DNA of 64,000 nt, taken from Escherichia phage AV109. The stretch lies in sequence record OR352939.1. One strand, written 5' to 3'. A program made the translations under genes and the position numbers. The notes beneath the pieces were generated by a model, which worked only from the letters and a program-made list of their open reading frames with translations, ran no database searches and was not told where the DNA came from. Positions 43,685 through 52,537 of the stretch are shown here, piece by piece. Each line of letters begins with the position of its first letter. Position 1 is the stretch's first letter.

Positions 43685-45949
43685 TTAAAGCTTACAAGCA
43701 GAACAATCTTCAGCTTTAGGTGTTTCTAATTCATAGTCATCTGTACCTGACCCATCACGAGTGTTATGATAGTAGAGGTTTTTTCCGCCAAAGTACCAGA
43801 AGTAAAGCAGATCGTCAAGCATTACTGACATTGGCACTTTACCTTTCTCAAATACTGCAGGGTCATAGTAAGTATTAGCAGAAGCAGATTGGCACACCCA
43901 TTTCAACATGATAGCAACTTGGGTCAAATAAGGTTTATTACCTTTCTTAGCAAGTTTCCACGCGTAGTCGTAAAGACTCATGTTATGTTCTATATTAGGA
44001 ACAACCTGTCGGAAGTTGCCTTCTTTAGATTCTTTAATACTTACAGGTCCACGAGGTGGTTCTATACCATTTGTGCTATTTGAGACTTGACTGCTTGACT
44101 CACAAGGCATGAGTGCAGACAACGTTGAGTTACGAATTCCATGTTCTTTGAGTTCAGCTCGAAGTTCTTCCCAGTCACAGACATAGTTCGGGGCTGCGAT
44201 TTGGTCAATCTTTTTATTGTACCAGTCGATAGGTAATTCGCCTCTAGACCATTTAGTGTCTGAATAATACTCACAAGGTCCTTTTTCTTTGGCGAGTTTG
44301 ATTGATGCTTTGATAAGGCCATATTGCAATCTCTCGAACAATTCATGGGTCAAATCGTTAGCGTCTTCATATGAAGCAAAGTTAGAAGCTAACCATGCAG
44401 CATAGTTCGTCACACCAACACCGAGATTTCGACGCTTTTTAGCTTTTAAAGCTTCTGGAACCGGATAATCTTGATAGTCTAACAGGTTATCAAGTGCACG
44501 TACTTGTACTTCAGCAAGTTCATTAATTTTATCTTGGTCTTGCCAATCAAATTTATCTAATACAAAAGCAGATAATGTGCATAAACCAATTTCAGCATCA
44601 GGACCATTCACATCATTAGTTGGAATAGCGATTTCACAACATAAGTTACTCTGACGAATTGGAGCTTTTTCACGAATAAACGGAGTGTAGTTATTCGTGT
44701 TATCAACAAACTGTGGATAAATTCGAGCAGTGCCAGAACGTTCAGTCATGAACAATTCAAAGAGTTCTAGTGCTTTGATTCTTTTCTTTCTGATTGTTGG
44801 GTCTTTTTCAGCTTTCTCATAAAGCTCACGGAATTTATCTTGATCTTCAAAGAACGAGTAGTATAGTTCACCTGACATTTCGTGAGGGCTAAATAAAGTA
44901 ATATAATCATTTTTACCAAGGCGTTCCATCATAAGGTCATTAATCTGAATTCCGTAGTCCATATGTCGAATACGGTTTTCATCCACGCCTTTGTTATTTT
45001 TCAGAACTAATAGGTTCTCTACTTCTAAGTGCCACATCGGATAATACGCTGTAGCAGCACCACCACGAATACCACCTTGAGAACAAGATTTTACTGCAGT
45101 TTGGAAATGTTTCCAGAATGGAATAACACCCGTATGTCGGACTTCACCCATACCGATCTTAGAACCTTCTGCACGAAGCATACCAACGTTGATACCGATA
45201 CCAGCTCGTTTAGAAATATATTCAATAATTGATGCTGAAGTTTTGTTAATAGATTTTAACGAATCACCGGCTTCAATAACTACACAACTAGAGAACTGGC
45301 GAGTCGGAGTGCGAGCACCTGCCATAATTGGAGTAGGCAATGAAACTTGATGAGTAGAAACGGCATCATAAAAACGAATAATATGTTTCAAACGGTCATG
45401 AGTTTCGTCTTGATGTAAGGCCATACCAATAGCCATGATAGCAAACTGTGGAGTTTCATAAATCTTCCCAGTTGTTTTATCTTTAACCAAGTATTTTTCT
45501 TTAAGCTGCATAGCACCAGCATAAGTCAGGTCAAAGTCTCGTTCATGTTTAATCTGTGAATCGAGATAAATGATTTCTTCTGCTGAATATTTAGACAACA
45601 ACTCAGGGTCATATTTGCCTTCATTAACACAGTAAGAAATATGGTCGATAAAAGCAGGCGGTTCAAACTGCCCATATACATCTTTACGAAGTGCAAACAT
45701 TAGCCCTTTGGCGGCGACATACTGATAATCGGGTTCTTCGACAGAAATCAAGTTAGCTGCAACTTTAATACAAATCTTCTGAATATCTTTGGTGCTCATC
45801 CCATCAACCAGATGAGTCTTAATTTCTTCATACAATTCGTATGGGTCGATTTGTGTTCCTTCACACTGCCAAGTTAATACTTGAATAATTTTCTGTGCAT
45901 CAAAATTTTGGGATACACCTGAATTTTTCACTACTTTAAAATTATACAT
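43685..45949 (-). CDS. nrdA: ribonucleotide reductase large subunit NrdA
   Basis: 754 aa, same length as T4 NrdA; near-identical to recalled T4 sequence over long stretches. Confidence 0.97.
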   Translation of the reverse strand: MYNFKVVKNSGVSQNFDAQKIIQVLTWQCEGTQIDPYELYEEIKTHLVDGMSTKDIQKICIKVAANLISVEEPDYQYVAAKGLMFALRKDVYGQFEPPAFIDHISYCVNEGKYDPELLSKYSAEEIIYLDSQIKHERDFDLTYAGAMQLKEKYLVKDKTTGKIYETPQFAIMAIGMALHQDETHDRLKHIIRFYDAVSTHQVSLPTPIMAGARTPTRQFSSCVVIEAGDSLKSINKTSASIIEYISKRAGIGINVGMLRAEGSKIGMGEVRHTGVIPFWKHFQTAVKSCSQGGIRGGAATAYYPMWHLEVENLLVLKNNKGVDENRIRHMDYGIQINDLMMERLGKNDYITLFSPHEMSGELYYSFFEDQDKFRELYEKAEKDPTIRKKRIKALELFELFMTERSGTARIYPQFVDNTNNYTPFIREKAPIRQSNLCCEIAIPTNDVNGPDAEIGLCTLSAFVLDKFDWQDQDKINELAEVQVRALDNLLDYQDYPVPEALKAKKRRNLGVGVTNYAAWLASNFASYEDANDLTHELFERLQYGLIKASIKLAKEKGPCEYYSDTKWSRGELPIDWYNKKIDQIAAPNYVCDWEELRAELKEHGIRNSTLSALMPCESSSQVSNSTNGIEPPRGPVSIKESKEGNFRQVVPNIEHNMSLYDYAWKLAKKGNKPYLTQVAIMLKWVCQSASANTYYDPAVFEKGKVPMSVMLDDLLYFWYFGGKNLYYHNTRDGSGTDDYELETPKAEDCSACKL

Positions 45950-46577
45950 AATAATTCCATGTTGGATAATTTGATGATTTTAGACGGCGTCTAACCGTTT
46001 GGGTGCTCATAGATAAAATTATTGACGCTTCATTTAATGTATCATATATTACGTCGTTTATAATTACTTTCTTTGCAAATGGATTCTTAGCTCCTATCAT
46101 AGCGTTAGAAATAGCTTGCTTAGTTGATTCTTTTAATGGGACTCCTTTAGAAATTTTTGTTTTAATTTTTATATTGTATTGTCCGCGTTTTTTACCTAAT
46201 AAAGAATTTCGTATCTTTTCTTTAGTCTCTTCAGATTTAACATGTCCTAGTTTGGAACGAGATATTTTATCTTTTGTTTTTTGGTCTAATTTTCGCCCTT
46301 TAAGCAAATCAACCATTTTTGCTCTAGCCCATCCAAATTCTTTATTATTTCTAGAACTCATTAAATTAACCGCGGTTGCTAAACCTAAATTGTTCGGATA
46401 TATTTTTAATAAAAGAAGATGAGCCAAATAATGTTCTGAATATGTTAATTTAACTAGATTGTATGACTCATTGGTGCCACCTAAACATTTTGGGATTATA
46501 TGATGCCATTCACCATCGATATCTTCAAAATTTCTTTCTTTATTTACTAAGTTTTTATATATTTTTAAATAATCCAT
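45942..46577 (-). CDS. free-standing HNH homing endonuclease with NUMOD-like repeats
   Basis: HNH motif EWHHIIPK...NLVKLTYSEHYLAH; repeated ETKEKIR/STKQAIS motifs; track start 46589 is a GTG, ATG at 46577; overlaps nrdA start by 8 nt. Confidence 0.8.
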   Translation of the reverse strand: MDYLKIYKNLVNKERNFEDIDGEWHHIIPKCLGGTNESYNLVKLTYSEHYLAHLLLLKIYPNNLGLATAVNLMSSRNNKEFGWARAKMVDLLKGRKLDQKTKDKISRSKLGHVKSEETKEKIRNSLLGKKRGQYNIKIKTKISKGVPLKESTKQAISNAMIGAKNPFAKKVIINDVIYDTLNEASIILSMSTQTVRRRLKSSNYPTWNYYV

Positions 46578-46653
46578 AGTATAATCCACTTTGTAGTATC
46601 AACGGGATAGTATTTATCCCGTTAATTTTATTATACACTTTTAAACTGAAGCG

Positions 46654-46909: not shown

Positions 46910-47221
46910 TTATACCGCCATTTTAGCTTTGATAGCTGGATGTGATTCGTAATTTTTAAGAACGAAATCAGAATGTGTCATCGTTCCGGTAACCCAGTCC
47001 ATTTGGATTTTTGTAGGCCAATTCTCAAAATTACTAGGCCAATTAATTTCAAGAGAACATAACTCTTTAGGTTCACGACGAAGAACTTCTTTGCATTGTT
47101 CTACATGATTGCTGTAGATATGCGTGTTGCCGCCTGAGAACACTAAATCACCTGGGATAAGGTTACACATCTTCGCTACAATATGTGTCAAGGCAGCGTA
47201 CGAGGCGATGTTGAACGGTAG
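46910..47221 (-). CDS. td: thymidylate synthase, exon 2
   Basis: LPFNIASYAAL.. continues the ThyA sequence; 3' splice site ..AUAAUG|CUA as in T4 td. Confidence 0.92.
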   Translation of the reverse strand, partial: LPFNIASYAALTHIVAKMCNLIPGDLVFSGGNTHIYSNHVEQCKEVLRREPKELCSLEINWPSNFENWPTKIQMDWVTGTMTHSDFVLKNYESHPAIKAKMAV

Positions 47222-48237
47222 CATTATGTTCAGATAAGGTCGTTAATCTTATCCCGGAATTATATCCAGCTGCATGTCACCATGCAGAGCAGACTATATC
47301 TCCAACTTGTTAAAGCAAGTTGTCTATCGTTTCGAGTCACTTGACCCTACTCCCTAAAGGGATAGTCGTTAGGCATTTATGTAGAACCAATTCCACTTAT
47401 CAGATTTTACACGGTAAGTAACTAATCCTGATGAAATTTCAAAATGTCTAGCCGCATCGGCTGCACATTCAAAAATAATCCCATCGCATGAAATCTTTTT
47501 GATGTTAGCTGGCTTTTTGCCTTTCATCTTTTCAGATAGTTTAGTTTTAGTTTTTTCTGAATGTTTGTGATTAAAGAACGGGTTATTTTCACCTGAACGT
47601 TTTCGGCACTTTCCACAAGTATCGGCCGAAGATGGTATGCGAACACCGCATTTACAAAACTTGTGGTTTTCTGGATTCCATCGGCCATTTTTACTTCCGT
47701 GTTTACCATAAAGAGCTTTCCGACCATCAGGACCAAGCTTAAGCATCTTAGCTTTAACAGTTTCAGCTCGTTTCTTAGCAATTTCTTCTTTTAATGGATG
47801 ATTTGAAAGCACATCGCCAAAAGACGCATCAGCAATATTATATCCATTAATTTTAGAATTTAGCTCTTTAATCCAAAAATTTTCTCGTTCAATAATCAAA
47901 TCTTTCTCATATGGAATTTCTTCCAGTATAGAGCATTCAAAAACATTACCATGTTTATTAAAAGACCTTTGAAATTTTATAGAAGAGTGAACACCGTTTT
48001 CAAGGTCTTTAAAATGTCTCTTCCATCTTTTCTCAAAATCTTTAGCACTTCCAACATACACTTTACCGTTTAAAGTGTTTTTAATCTGATAAATTCCGCT
48101 TTTCATAAACACCTCTTTTTATATAGAAGTATTTATTAAAGGGTAGTCCTACAATTTAGCACGGGATTGTCTACTAGAGAGGTCCCCCGTTTAGATAGAT
48201 TACAAGTATAAGTCACCTTATACCTAGGCCTAAATTA
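47222..48237 (-). mobile_element. group I intron in td (1016 nt) carrying I-TevI
   Basis: 5' end UAAUUUAGGCCUAGGUAUAAGGUGACUUAUACUUGUAAUCUAUCUAAACGGGG matches the recalled T4 td intron; length 1016 as in T4. Confidence 0.92.
47369..48106 (-). CDS. I-TevI: GIY-YIG homing endonuclease I-TevI (intron-encoded)
   Basis: 245 aa from the ATG at 48106 (track starts at an upstream GTG); near-identical to recalled T4 I-TevI. Confidence 0.93.
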   Translation of the reverse strand: MKSGIYQIKNTLNGKVYVGSAKDFEKRWKRHFKDLENGVHSSIKFQRSFNKHGNVFECSILEEIPYEKDLIIERENFWIKELNSKINGYNIADASFGDVLSNHPLKEEIAKKRAETVKAKMLKLGPDGRKALYGKHGSKNGRWNPENHKFCKCGVRIPSSADTCGKCRKRSGENNPFFNHKHSEKTKTKLSEKMKGKKPANIKKISCDGIIFECAADAARHFEISSGLVTYRVKSDKWNWFYINA

Positions 48238-48786
48238 ACCTAAGAAAACATCTACACTGCGTTGATACCATTGTAAATCAAGATGTCCATTACGCACATT
48301 AAATTGATAGAACATATGACAAGGAGGAAGAGCCATTTGATTTATTTCAGCCGGATTCCAGGCAGAAACAATTTGACGACGATCAGTTGGTAATTTTTTA
48401 ATACGGTCGATTGTTTCAACTAATTGGTCTACACCACCAAAATCACGCCATTGCTTACCATAAATAGGACCAAGTTCGCCGCTATGATATCCAAGGTCTT
48501 TTGCCTGATTTTCATAGTTGTCGTCCCAAATAGTTTTACCTTGAATAAGACTACCATGAGTACGAATACGCAAATCATTAACATTTGTAGAGCCAGACAT
48601 GAACCATAATAGCTCAGCAATACAAGCTTTCCATGCAAGCTTCTTGGTTGTTACTGCAGGAAATCCTTTAGTCAGATCCCATCGCAATTTAGTTCCGAAC
48701 AGGGCAATAGTGCCGGTACCTGTACGGTCGTCTGTTTCGTAGCCATTTTCTAGGATATCATTAATCAGGTATTGGTATTGTTTCAT
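48238..48786 (-). CDS. td: thymidylate synthase, exon 1
   Basis: 183 codons ending ..QRSVDVFLG immediately before the intron UAA. Confidence 0.93.
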
Positions 48787-50077: not shown

Positions 50078-50106
50078 TTTGATTTCCTCATGTTGTTGAT
50101 AGGTCT

Positions 50107-50135
50107 ATACTAACACATCCAGGGAAGAAGTAAAC
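50107..50135 (-). promoter_or_regulatory. T4-type early promoter (-35 GTTTAC, 17-nt spacer, extended -10 TGnTAGTAT)
   Basis: repeat-family promoter downstream of the gene 32 terminator. Confidence 0.55.
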
Positions 50136-50166
50136 AACTTTTTCAGCAATTTACAGATACTCAAAA

Positions 50167-50184
50167 GGGAGACCGAAGTCTCCC
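50167..50184 (-). terminator. terminator hairpin GGGAGAC-CGAA-GTCTCCC after gene 32
   Basis: perfect 7-bp stem, UUCG loop in the mRNA, U4 downstream. Confidence 0.55.
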
Positions 50185-50190
50185 AATTTA

Positions 50191-51090
50191 TTATAGACCA
50201 GCTAACAGGTCATCGAGGTCGCCATCGTCAGAAGACGAGGAACTCATGAAGTCATCTTCAGTTTTTGCAGAACTAAAGGCTTCCATGTCTTTATCAAAAT
50301 CGTCAAGGTCAGAAGCAACTTTATCTGCAACAGAAGCTGCTGCGGCTGCTGCACCACCAAGAGCGGCAGTACCAAGAACTTGATTAAATTTAGTATTCAA
50401 TTCTTCAAACGATTTGAACTTATCTTTAGAAGTCATTTCAGAAAGGTCGACCATTTGTTCGAACAATTCTTTCTGGAAAGATTCATCATCAATGTTTGGA
50501 ATCGCAGATTGATTCAGGAATTTAGATTCGTCGTAGTTACTGAAACCAGAAACCTGTTTAACTTTCAGCACGAAGTTAGCACCTTCCCATGGGCAAGTTA
50601 CATCAACAGGAGTTTCACCCATTTCAGTATCGACTGCAATCATTGCATTGATTTTGTCCCAAATCTTTTTACCGAAACGATATTTGAATACTTTACCTTC
50701 ATTATCTGGAGCTTGAGGGTCTTTAACAACCAGAATATTAGCCCAATAAGAAGTTTTACGTTTCAGTTGAGAATATTCAGTTTTGTTGGTATTGTACAGG
50801 TCATTTTTACTAATGTACTGACATACAGGACAAGAGTCATAATCACCGTGTGTAGATGAACAGGTTTCAATATACCATTTGCCATTTTTCTTGAACCCGT
50901 GGTTAACAAGAATTGCAAACGGAAGTGCGTCATCTGTTTTTGCCGGCAGGAAACGAATTACCGCTTGGCCATTACCGGATGCGTCGAGTTTCAGCTTCCA
51001 TTCACCTTTATCTTCTGAAGAGAAACCTTTGTTACCATTCAGTTTAGCCATCTGAGCTGCGAGGTCTGCGGTACTTTTACGTTTAAACAT
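50191..51090 (-). CDS. 32: single-stranded DNA-binding protein (T4 gp32-like)
   Basis: 299 aa; near-identical to recalled T4 gp32, including the acidic Ser/Asp-rich C-terminus. Confidence 0.97.
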
Positions 51091-51160
51091 TTTATTTGCC
51101 TTTATTTAGATTATTAATTAAATTTTACAGTTGGTTGCTACGACACTTATACCTCGTAGC
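51091..51160 (-). promoter_or_regulatory. gene 32 5' leader: AU-rich UUAAA-repeat region plus upstream hairpin (autogenous translational operator)
   Basis: minus-strand leader AAUUUAAUUAAUAAUCUAAAUAAA before the ATG and a 7-bp hairpin GCUACGA..UCGUAGC further upstream. Confidence 0.5.
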
Positions 51161-51170
51161 TGGTATGATT

Positions 51171-51178
51171 TATTTATA
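51171..51178 (-). promoter_or_regulatory. candidate T4-type late promoter (TATAAATA on minus strand) for gene 32
   Basis: plus-strand TATTTATA about 80 nt upstream of the gene 32 ATG. Confidence 0.45.
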
Positions 51179-51207
51179 AAGTAATTTTAACACACAAGAA
51201 ATAAAGC

Positions 51208-51861
51208 TTAATACTTACATGATTTGATTGTTTCTATGAACAATTTCTTAGCAGCATTTCTATCGATTTGAAGTATTTTTCGATATGCCTTTAATTTGGT
51301 AGAATAATTTTGCCAGACTAAGTTATCGGTGAGTTCGTCGTGCTTATCTATAATATTCAAAAATGAGTCCAACAATAAGAAAGTCTCAAATGAAATTATA
51401 TTGCTTTGTAGCAATTTGAATATGTAGCTCGACTGAACGTTGCTATTATAATCAAATATCTCTTGAAGCGCACTAACTTCAACTTTCTTACTGAAATAGT
51501 AGATGTTACGTACGTCTTCAGCAAACGACTCTTTAGCTTGTTTGAGACGTCCAATATATTCCCTATAGAAAACTAATGCATCAGCGTCTGATATCTCACC
51601 AATCCATGCGTCTTGGTTAGCAACTAAGTTGCTTATGAATATCAAGGTGAGTTCCTTCAATTTATATTTCTCTGCTAGTTTTTCAAAGAAATATTTATCT
51701 CGGCGTTTTTGATACGCATTATCCGAAACACGCATGCACCAGTTATATTTGATTACGTCATACCGACCACCAAAGTGGTTTTTGCACATCAAGTATAGTT
51801 TATATACTGATTTTCCATTAATATAACGTTCTCCGTCAGGAGGCATGCGTATTTTAATCAT
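51208..51861 (-). CDS. 59: helicase loader (T4 gp59-like)
   Basis: 217 aa; near-identical to recalled T4 gp59. Confidence 0.95.
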   Translation of the reverse strand: MIKIRMPPDGERYINGKSVYKLYLMCKNHFGGRYDVIKYNWCMRVSDNAYQKRRDKYFFEKLAEKYKLKELTLIFISNLVANQDAWIGEISDADALVFYREYIGRLKQAKESFAEDVRNIYYFSKKVEVSALQEIFDYNSNVQSSYIFKLLQSNIISFETFLLLDSFLNIIDKHDELTDNLVWQNYSTKLKAYRKILQIDRNAAKKLFIETIKSCKY

Positions 51862-52537
51862 AGTTCCATCCAGGCCATTTTGAAGATTTAAGTCTATATG
51901 TAACTAAAGACGCAGAAATATTAAAAACATTTGAAACTTCTTTACACGAGGCGTATTTTATACCATCAATAATTATAGGTTTTTGTTTTTTAATAGTTCT
52001 TTCTTTAGAATGCGGCTTTGAATTTGCTATTCTAAGAGCTTCTTTGGTTGAATCAGGCATCGGCTTATTCGTTTTTCGCCCTTTTCGGACTTTACTCAAG
52101 GCCAATTTGTGAGCTTCAGATAGTTTCTTACCCTTATTAGGTGACGGTATTTTTCTTTCTAGTCTTGTTTTAGATACTTTAGCCTTAGTCTCTTCAGATC
52201 TAGGTTTACCTAATTTAGAAAGTGAAATAGACCTTTTAGCTTCATCACTTTGTTTTTTACCAGGACCACCTTTACCACCGGGAACTAAGTTATAAGTATC
52301 ATCTCGCAAAACAAAATCTTCATTAACCAATTCTGCTTCTTTTTTATAGGCGTCCTTGTCATTATCATATTCATAAAGAATTTCGGTATAAAAATTTTTT
52401 AGTCCATATTTAGCTTTGGCCGCTAATATAGCGCGGCCTGATCCAATATACCAATCTTTCTCTTTATGTTTTTTGTGTACGCCTATATAAATTTTACCAT
52501 TTATTTTATTGGTAGTTTTATACACAACGTATTTCAT
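51854..52537 (-). CDS. free-standing GIY-YIG homing endonuclease (Seg-like) between genes 33 and 59
   Basis: N-terminal YKTTNKINGKIYIG GIY-YIG motif, NUMOD-like Lys/Ser repeats, C-terminal DNA-binding region; ATGA overlap with gene 33 and 8-nt overlap with gene 59. Confidence 0.85.
   Translation of the reverse strand: MKYVVYKTTNKINGKIYIGVHKKHKEKDWYIGSGRAILAAKAKYGLKNFYTEILYEYDNDKDAYKKEAELVNEDFVLRDDTYNLVPGGKGGPGKKQSDEAKRSISLSKLGKPRSEETKAKVSKTRLERKIPSPNKGKKLSEAHKLALSKVRKGRKTNKPMPDSTKEALRIANSKPHSKERTIKKQKPIIIDGIKYASCKEVSNVFNISASLVTYRLKSSKWPGWNYD

Follow-up and report, generated by a model that had tools for sequence, protein, structure and literature searches.

The segment 51178-51091 on the minus strand very probably represents the operator through which gp32 controls its own translation, with the proximal promoters of gene 32 included. 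The window is the whole analyzed stretch of 64,000 nucleotides from Escherichia phage AV109 (OR352939.1). The element as such is already known: judged by its sequence, it is an allele of the experimentally characterized operator of phage RB69. The leader lies on the same strand as the gp32 gene and directly 5' of it, downstream of gene 59, whose stop codon occupies 51210-51208 (see Table 1 for all features). A 501-nt query around the leader was 100% identical to Escherichia phage AV114 (OR352944.1), with equal coordinates, and 90-99% identical to 152 other genomes, nearly all of them Mosigvirus (RB69-like). The deduced gp32 matches that of RB69 at 299/299 residues and is, by analogy, the repressor of its own cistron. 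The initial annotation of this DNA had already read the leader as an autogenous gene 32 operator, and this reading is supported by the layout, the RB69 identity and the conserved structure.

Table 1. Features of the gene 32 leader and its surroundings, in order of transcription; minus-strand positions are numbered in the window.
Feature	Coordinates	Strand	Remarks
Gene 59 (gp59)	51861..51208	-	ORF, Pfam; upstream of gene 32
MotA-box-like TTAAGCTTTA	51202..51211	-	9/10 match to (a/t)(a/t)(a/t)TGCTTtA; overlaps the gene 59 stop
Extended -10 element TGT-TAAAAT	51184..51192	-	kept in RB69; TGn / TAtaaT consensus
T4-type late promoter octamer TATAAATA	51171..51178	-	identical in RB69 and other Mosigviruses
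S1 5' strand AUACC	51162..51166	-	-76..-72 relative to AUG; pairs with GGUAU 51153-51149
L1, single A	51161	-	invariant A in 11/11 distinct leaders
S2 5' strand GCUACGA	51154..51160	-	pairs with UCGUAGC
S1 3' strand GGUAU	51149..51153	-	inside the '10-nt loop' of the initial annotation
L2 AAGUG	51144..51148	-	five letters same in T4
S2 3' strand UCGUAGC	51137..51143	-	pairs with GCUACGA
A+U-rich tract, predicted unstructured	51091..51136	-	-46..-1; contains the Shine-Dalgarno core; proposed gp32 lattice
AACUGU (in ACCAACUGU context)	51127..51132	-	directly 3' of the pseudoknot
Shine-Dalgarno core AAGG	51099..51102	-	GG at -10, -9
Gene 32 (gp32, 299 aa)	51090..50191	-	ORF; Pfam gp32 PF08804, E = 2e-64
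Intrinsic terminator past gene 32	50159..50184	-	GGGAGAC-UUCG-GUCUCCC, then U tract

The folded element had initially been described as a 7-bp hairpin with a 10-nt loop. The stem is indeed present, with GCUACGA at 51160-51154, the 10 nt GGUAUAAGUG at 51153-51144 and UCGUAGC at 51143-51137. However, GGUAU within the supposed loop is complementary to AUACC, so the element is a pseudoknot and not a simple hairpin. It is of the H-type, 30 nt in length (51166-51137, minus strand), spans -76 to -47 relative to the AUG and consists of a 5-bp S1, a 1-nt L1, a 7-bp S2 and a 5-nt L2. As ViennaRNA can neither form nor score pseudoknots and as two-thirds of the leader were expected to be unstructured, the segments were folded separately. 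Folded alone, S2 reached -9.4 kcal/mol and S1 -3.4 kcal/mol, each with z = -3.0 against shuffles, while the entire 101-nt leader gave a z-score of only -0.46. A strict H-type pattern was found at 11 sites when both strands of the window (128 kb) were searched, and a single instance on its own is therefore only suggestive. Searches of Rfam yielded no match on the minus strand over the leader (50900-51400) at E <= 10 and none in the window as a whole when gathering thresholds were applied, and no model in Rfam 15 fits the gene 32 pseudoknot.

Support for the structure comes from its covariation among relatives. Gene 32 upstream regions from IMG/VR (n = 78) were scanned for the pseudoknot pattern, which occurred in ten of them, all close relatives, at 61-75 nt 5' of the AUG. 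In total, 11 distinct pseudoknot sequences from approximately nine genera were aligned, the leaders being named by their GenBank matches. The set comprised Mosigvirus (AV114/RB69 and SA79RD), Tequatrovirus (T4 and T2/RB32/HY03), Serratia CHI14/X20 (Winklervirus), Escherichia phage EcS1, Erwinia phage Cronus, Erwinia FBB1 (Roskildevirus), Klebsiella HMGUkp2, locus L029 and Acinetobacter Henu6 (Zedzedvirus, Twarogvirinae). A MAFFT alignment of whole leaders misregistered S1 in the T2-type and Tegunavirus leaders, and a hand-registered alignment was used instead. Setting the register by hand and padding the loops with N favors the structure, although the 19 columns from the S1 5' to the S1 3' strand are gap-free by nature. 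In this hand-registered alignment of 11 leaders, 96.2% of the cells held standard pairs, and compensatory double changes were found at 11 of the 12 pairs (S1, 5/5; S2, 6/7). None of 500 shuffles matched the observed covariation values, and the covariation score of 0.77 fell to 0.05-0.14 when the partners were slid by one to three columns. Unguided MAFFT in combination with RNAalifold also recovered S2, with compensatory changes at 5/7 pairs. The initial annotation had staked its reading on conservation with other T4-like gene 32 leaders. In the comparison the structure was kept with compensatory changes in Tequatrovirus, Mosigvirus, Winklervirus, EcS1, Cronus, Roskildevirus, a Klebsiella phage and Zedzedvirus, and the reading was not refuted.

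Distant gp32 loci (n = 49, about 40% identity) were also searched for the pseudoknot, as were, with relaxed loop length, genera lacking it; only FBB1 and Henu6 gave a positive result. In Henu6 (L102 181-227), S1 is AAGCUU/AAGCUU, L1 is A and S2 is GGUACAC/GUGUAUC; L2 comprises 20 nt, and the pseudoknot is positioned only about 20 nt 5' of the AUG. As ACCAACUGUUAGG follows directly 3' of it, hardly any AU-rich lattice remains before the Shine-Dalgarno sequence of this phage. In Erwinia FBB1 (L088 275-302), the gene 59 stop TGA (284-286) is located inside the 5' strand of S2, so that the coding sequence overlaps the pseudoknot, as has been reported for T4 segG. The leaders of Tegunavirus (Yersinia phages; L027, L028 and L093) carry, about 60-105 nt upstream of gene 32, an S2-like helix, GGUGUAG/CUACAUC, with a long spacer, and two competing candidates for S1, ACAAUGAA/UUCAUUGU (8 bp) and UGACA/UGUCA; they may form a variant of the pseudoknot.

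Between the pseudoknot and the start codon lies the 46-nt tract, which with 83% A+U ranks among the top 0.27% of the same-strand 46-nt windows. Its six UAAA/UUAA motifs (four UAAA and two UUAA) place it in the top 0.1%. The minimum free energy was -0.5 kcal/mol, the centroid was open, and 179 of 200 shuffles folded equally well or better. The AU-rich string AAUUUAAUUAAUAAUCUAAAUAAA that had been quoted for this region is located at 51124-51101 on the minus strand. Its description as a series of 'UUAAA-type' repeats holds loosely, given the UAAA and UUAA motifs, but an exact UUAAA does not occur.

RB69 belongs to the same genus and shares with the window not only gp32 but also, letter for letter, the late promoter and the 30 nt of the pseudoknot (30/30). 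The two leaders agree without a break from the -10-like element to the end of the pseudoknot, the late promoter included; upstream of the promoters, three substitutions are found close to the gene 59 stop. Autogenous repression by RB69 gp32 has been demonstrated both in vivo and in vitro (Borjac-Natour, Petrov and Karam, 2004; PMC535899). The constructs testing autogenous control in vivo included a deletion of the pseudoknot element, and purified RB69 gp32 inhibited in vitro translation (PMC535899). In the RB69 leader, -1 to -45 was hypersensitive to DMS and DEPC, while the pseudoknot segment was sensitive to RNase V1, and footprints on this leader ranged from -14 to -61 for RB69 gp32 and from -42 to -61 for T4 gp32 (PMC535899). 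As the RB69 pseudoknot spans -75 to -46, both footprints start in its 3' half. We infer that gp32 also binds the AU-tract allele of the window; repression and footprints are known from RB69, which has the same protein and the same pseudoknot.

The two alleles differ within the tract, which is 45 nt long in RB69 compared to 46 nt in the window, with three substitutions and indels (net +1 nt). It reads GUAAAAUUUAAUUAAUAAUC in the window and GUAAAUAAAUUAAAUAAUC in RB69, and the only exact UUAAA of RB69 is lost in the window. The numbering from -1 to -22, including the Shine-Dalgarno GG at -10/-9, is common to both, but RB69 has U at -8 and -2 where the window has C at -8 (51098, minus strand) and A at -2. 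A small hairpin from -21 to -8 has been proposed in the ribosome-binding region of RB69 (PMC535899). The centroid folds showed it for RB69 but not for the window, and the exchange of U(-8) for C removes one of its pairs. Given the missing exact UUAAA and the substitutions and indels relative to RB69, the strength of repression could differ between the two alleles. The tract allele of the window also occurs in phage moha.

Among relatives, tract length varies by whole units (9 nt in Mosigvirus and 5 nt in Tequatrovirus), whereas the pseudoknot is invariant within each genus. In Mosigvirus (L094-L096), the unit AAUAAUCUA is present once in RB69 and the window, twice in SSE1 and LF82-3 and three times in Shf125875. 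In Tequatrovirus (L082, L083 and L087), the unit AAUUA occurs twice in RB32, three times in T4 and five times in HY03. The number of repeat units could tune the set-point of repression.

The leader of T4, for which the mechanism of gene 32 autocontrol has been reviewed (PMC3014915), is built alike, with an H-type pseudoknot at -67, an A as L1, a 7-bp S2 and AAGUG as L2, followed by ACCAACUGU and an AU-rich tract up to the Shine-Dalgarno sequence and AUG. It differs in that S1 has 4 bp (UGCC/GGUA, one G-U) compared to 5 bp in the window and in a compensatory U-A/C-G swap in S2; the tract is shorter than in the window and contains three exact AAUUA/UUAAA repeats. In addition, the 5' part of the T4 pseudoknot overlaps the segG (32.1) frame, whereas gene 59 of the window ends 41 nt upstream. 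The T2/T6 pseudoknot, determined by NMR (PDB 2TPK), shares the topology, with two stacked helices (PMC3014915), a 1-nt L1 and a 7-bp S2. According to the sequences, T2-type leaders have UGACC/GGUCA as S1 and a 7-nt L2, UACAUCG, compared to the 5-nt L2 of the window, and TATAAATA is placed 17 nt 5' of the pseudoknot instead of 4 nt.

Two further operators can be compared at the level of principle. The E. coli rpsO leader likewise uses a 5' pseudoknot for self-repression, here by S15, an analogy drawn in PMC3014915; however, its sequence is unrelated, and the model for gp32 is instead a cooperative filament that occludes the ribosome-binding site. Gene 43 (DNA polymerase) of T4 and RB69 is similar in that a replication protein binds a folded structure at the ribosome-binding site of its own mRNA and represses translation, but that operator, a simple hairpin whose loop is specific, involves neither a pseudoknot nor a cooperative lattice.

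The late-promoter octamer named in the initial annotation was found as TATAAATA at 51178-51171 on the minus strand; in the SA79RD record it bears the label of a late promoter. The window contains 17 copies of TATAAATA, compared to 7.6 +/- 2.9 in shuffles, of which only four are on the minus strand. The late box occupies -13 to -6 (PMC2988020), and a late start is predicted near 51165, within one base of the first pseudoknot nucleotide. Farther upstream, TTAAGCTTTA and the extended -10 element are separated by 12 nt, and T4 middle promoters require a MotA box with a 12-nt spacing to the -10 element (PMC2988021). A middle promoter with a start near 51177 is predicted accordingly at this position. 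A sigma-70 consensus scan of the spacer revealed no canonical -35/-10 promoter, and the assignments of the MotA box and the late promoter follow published consensus sequences.

The predicted late start would put the pseudoknot at the extreme 5' end of the message, as might be expected if the folded element acted mainly as a 5' stabilizer or processing boundary of an unusually long-lived gene 32 mRNA, shielding it from 5'-end-dependent attack by RNase E once the upstream RNA is gone, and not as a nucleation site. In T4, no messages are more stable than those of gene 32, and RNase E cuts all species at -71, 4 nt 5' of the pseudoknot, with the upstream RNA being degraded (PMC3014915). We nevertheless consider it very unlikely that this is the main role of the element. 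A simple hairpin would be enough for stabilization, yet both helices and the single A of L1 are conserved; RB69 gp32 leaves a footprint in the 3' half of that structure (PMC535899), and the RAUUW-type AAUUA of T4 is AAUCA in the window. A stabilizing role is, however, compatible with that of an operator and would be plausible as an additional function.

With regard to the tract, the UAA-rich ribosome-binding region might be a target of RegA, instead of or besides gp32. Many UAA triplets occur in the tract of the window, and such triplets were selected by RB69 RegA in a SELEX study as cited in PMC3014915. However, RegA leaves the conserved pseudoknot unexplained, RB69 gp32 alone is able to repress in vitro (PMC535899), and gene 32 is listed in PMC3014915 under 'specific autocontrol', apart from the RegA targets; we therefore assign only a very low probability to a RegA target at this site.

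That the hairpin functions as a rho-independent terminator of gene 59 transcription appears hardly credible, although the SA79RD record (OL960576.1; L100 241-274) carries a WebGeSTer 'rho-independent terminator' over the homologous 34 nt. S2 is followed by AACCAACUGUAAAA and thus lacks a U tract, for which reason this reading was rejected. A terminator scan over 50100-51400 found none at 51137-51166 but did find that of gene 32 at 50184-50167. Moreover, a terminator needs no S1, yet S1 covaries, and in T4 upstream polycistronic transcripts also contribute to gene 32 expression (PMC3014915). Since the SA79RD hairpin has no U tract either, its terminator label is probably a mis-annotation. Finally, a chance combination of an AT-rich spacer with a fortuitous inverted repeat, for which one might invoke the 62% A+T content of the genome, its AT-rich intergenic regions and the unremarkable z-score of the whole-leader fold, is virtually impossible, as it is refuted by the compensatory changes at 11 of 12 pairs across some nine genera and by the constant distance to the AUG, and is further opposed by the extreme composition and motif count of the tract and by the identity with an experimentally characterized operator.

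Short repeats form a second class of conserved elements in gene 32 leaders. Of 34 distinct gene 32 upstream-70 sequences, 30 contained AACUGU, compared to about 0.025 expected, at 22-51 nt 5' of the AUG; genome-wide, it was not enriched. In most of the pseudoknot-bearing leaders ACCAACUGU is located directly 3' of S2, and so is AACUGU, including the leader of the Acinetobacter phage. Karamvirus and Gelderlandvirus, which lack the pseudoknot, have three AACUGU copies within the final 40 nt of gene 59, and these occur in three codon phases (CAA CUG UUC / AAA ACU GUC / AAC UGU), which argues for selection at the nucleotide level. Distant T4-like loci (L031-L080, gp32 about 40% identical) have neither the pseudoknot nor AACUGU, but AAUAC(A) clusters upstream of gene 32, with 1.79 AAUAC per 70 nt upstream versus 0.09 elsewhere in the same loci, an approximately 20-fold difference. 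Vibrio phage phi-ST2 (L105 135-245) similarly has AAUAC(A) clusters before gene 32 and no pseudoknot; in Vibrio and marine T4-like phages, such clusters stand in the place of AACUGU. Searches of a literature collection for AACUGU in the context of T4 and for work after 2011 on gp32 autoregulation in T4-like phages found no relevant report there. It is possible, but in our view rather doubtful, that T4-like gene 32 leaders generally carry lineage-specific repeats as a binding lattice for gp32 or another factor. In that case, phages without the pseudoknot would still control gene 32 autogenously. The conserved short repeats AACUGU and AAUAC in leaders lacking the pseudoknot are, like the unit-wise variation of the tract and the pseudoknot of Henu6, leads of modest value and not findings.

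Genes for mobile endonucleases are abundant in this region of the window. Between genes 33 and 59, an ORF of 227 aa (51854-52537, minus strand) is inserted that overlaps both and represents a Seg-like homing endonuclease of the GIY-YIG type, including a DNA-binding domain of the I-TevI type; it is absent from RB69 and was found in only 28 of 166 related records. The thymidylate synthase gene td is split (46910-48786, minus strand), exon 1 ending with ...DVFLG at 48238 and exon 2 starting with LPFNIASY at 47221. The two exons are separated by about 1 kb containing an I-TevI-like ORF (48112..47369), an arrangement that resembles the group I intron of T4 td. Rfam gave no group I intron at the gathering threshold, and the td gene of RB69 is annotated as uninterrupted. 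A third endonuclease-like ORF (45942-46589, minus strand, 215 aa) has the HNH-type motif 'HHIIPKCLGG' and a C-terminus similar to the I-TevI-type DNA-binding tail found in both homing-endonuclease ORFs described above.

For the gene 32 operator, the following course of events is proposed. Gene 32 mRNAs would start or be processed near 51165-51180, so that their 5' end region would carry the pseudoknot 51166-51137 (AUACC/GGUAU, A, GCUACGA/UCGUAGC and AAGUG). Once free gp32 exceeds the available single-stranded DNA, the protein would nucleate at or beside the pseudoknot and polymerize cooperatively in 3' direction on the 46-nt UAAA/UUAA tract, thereby covering the Shine-Dalgarno sequence (51102-51099) and the AUG (51090). 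Ribosomes would be excluded, and gp32 would be kept at a set level.

For annotation, the element should be labeled as a gene 32 translational operator, consisting of a pseudoknot and an AU-rich lattice, and not as a terminator. The 2010 review called for further work on gp32 autocontrol across the diversity of T4-related phages (PMC3014915). With the present comparison, a by-product of modest value, the known range of the gene 32 pseudoknot grows to nine genera or more, among them that of an Acinetobacter phage from another subfamily. The comparison also provides strong covariation support for a structure that is matched by no Rfam model.
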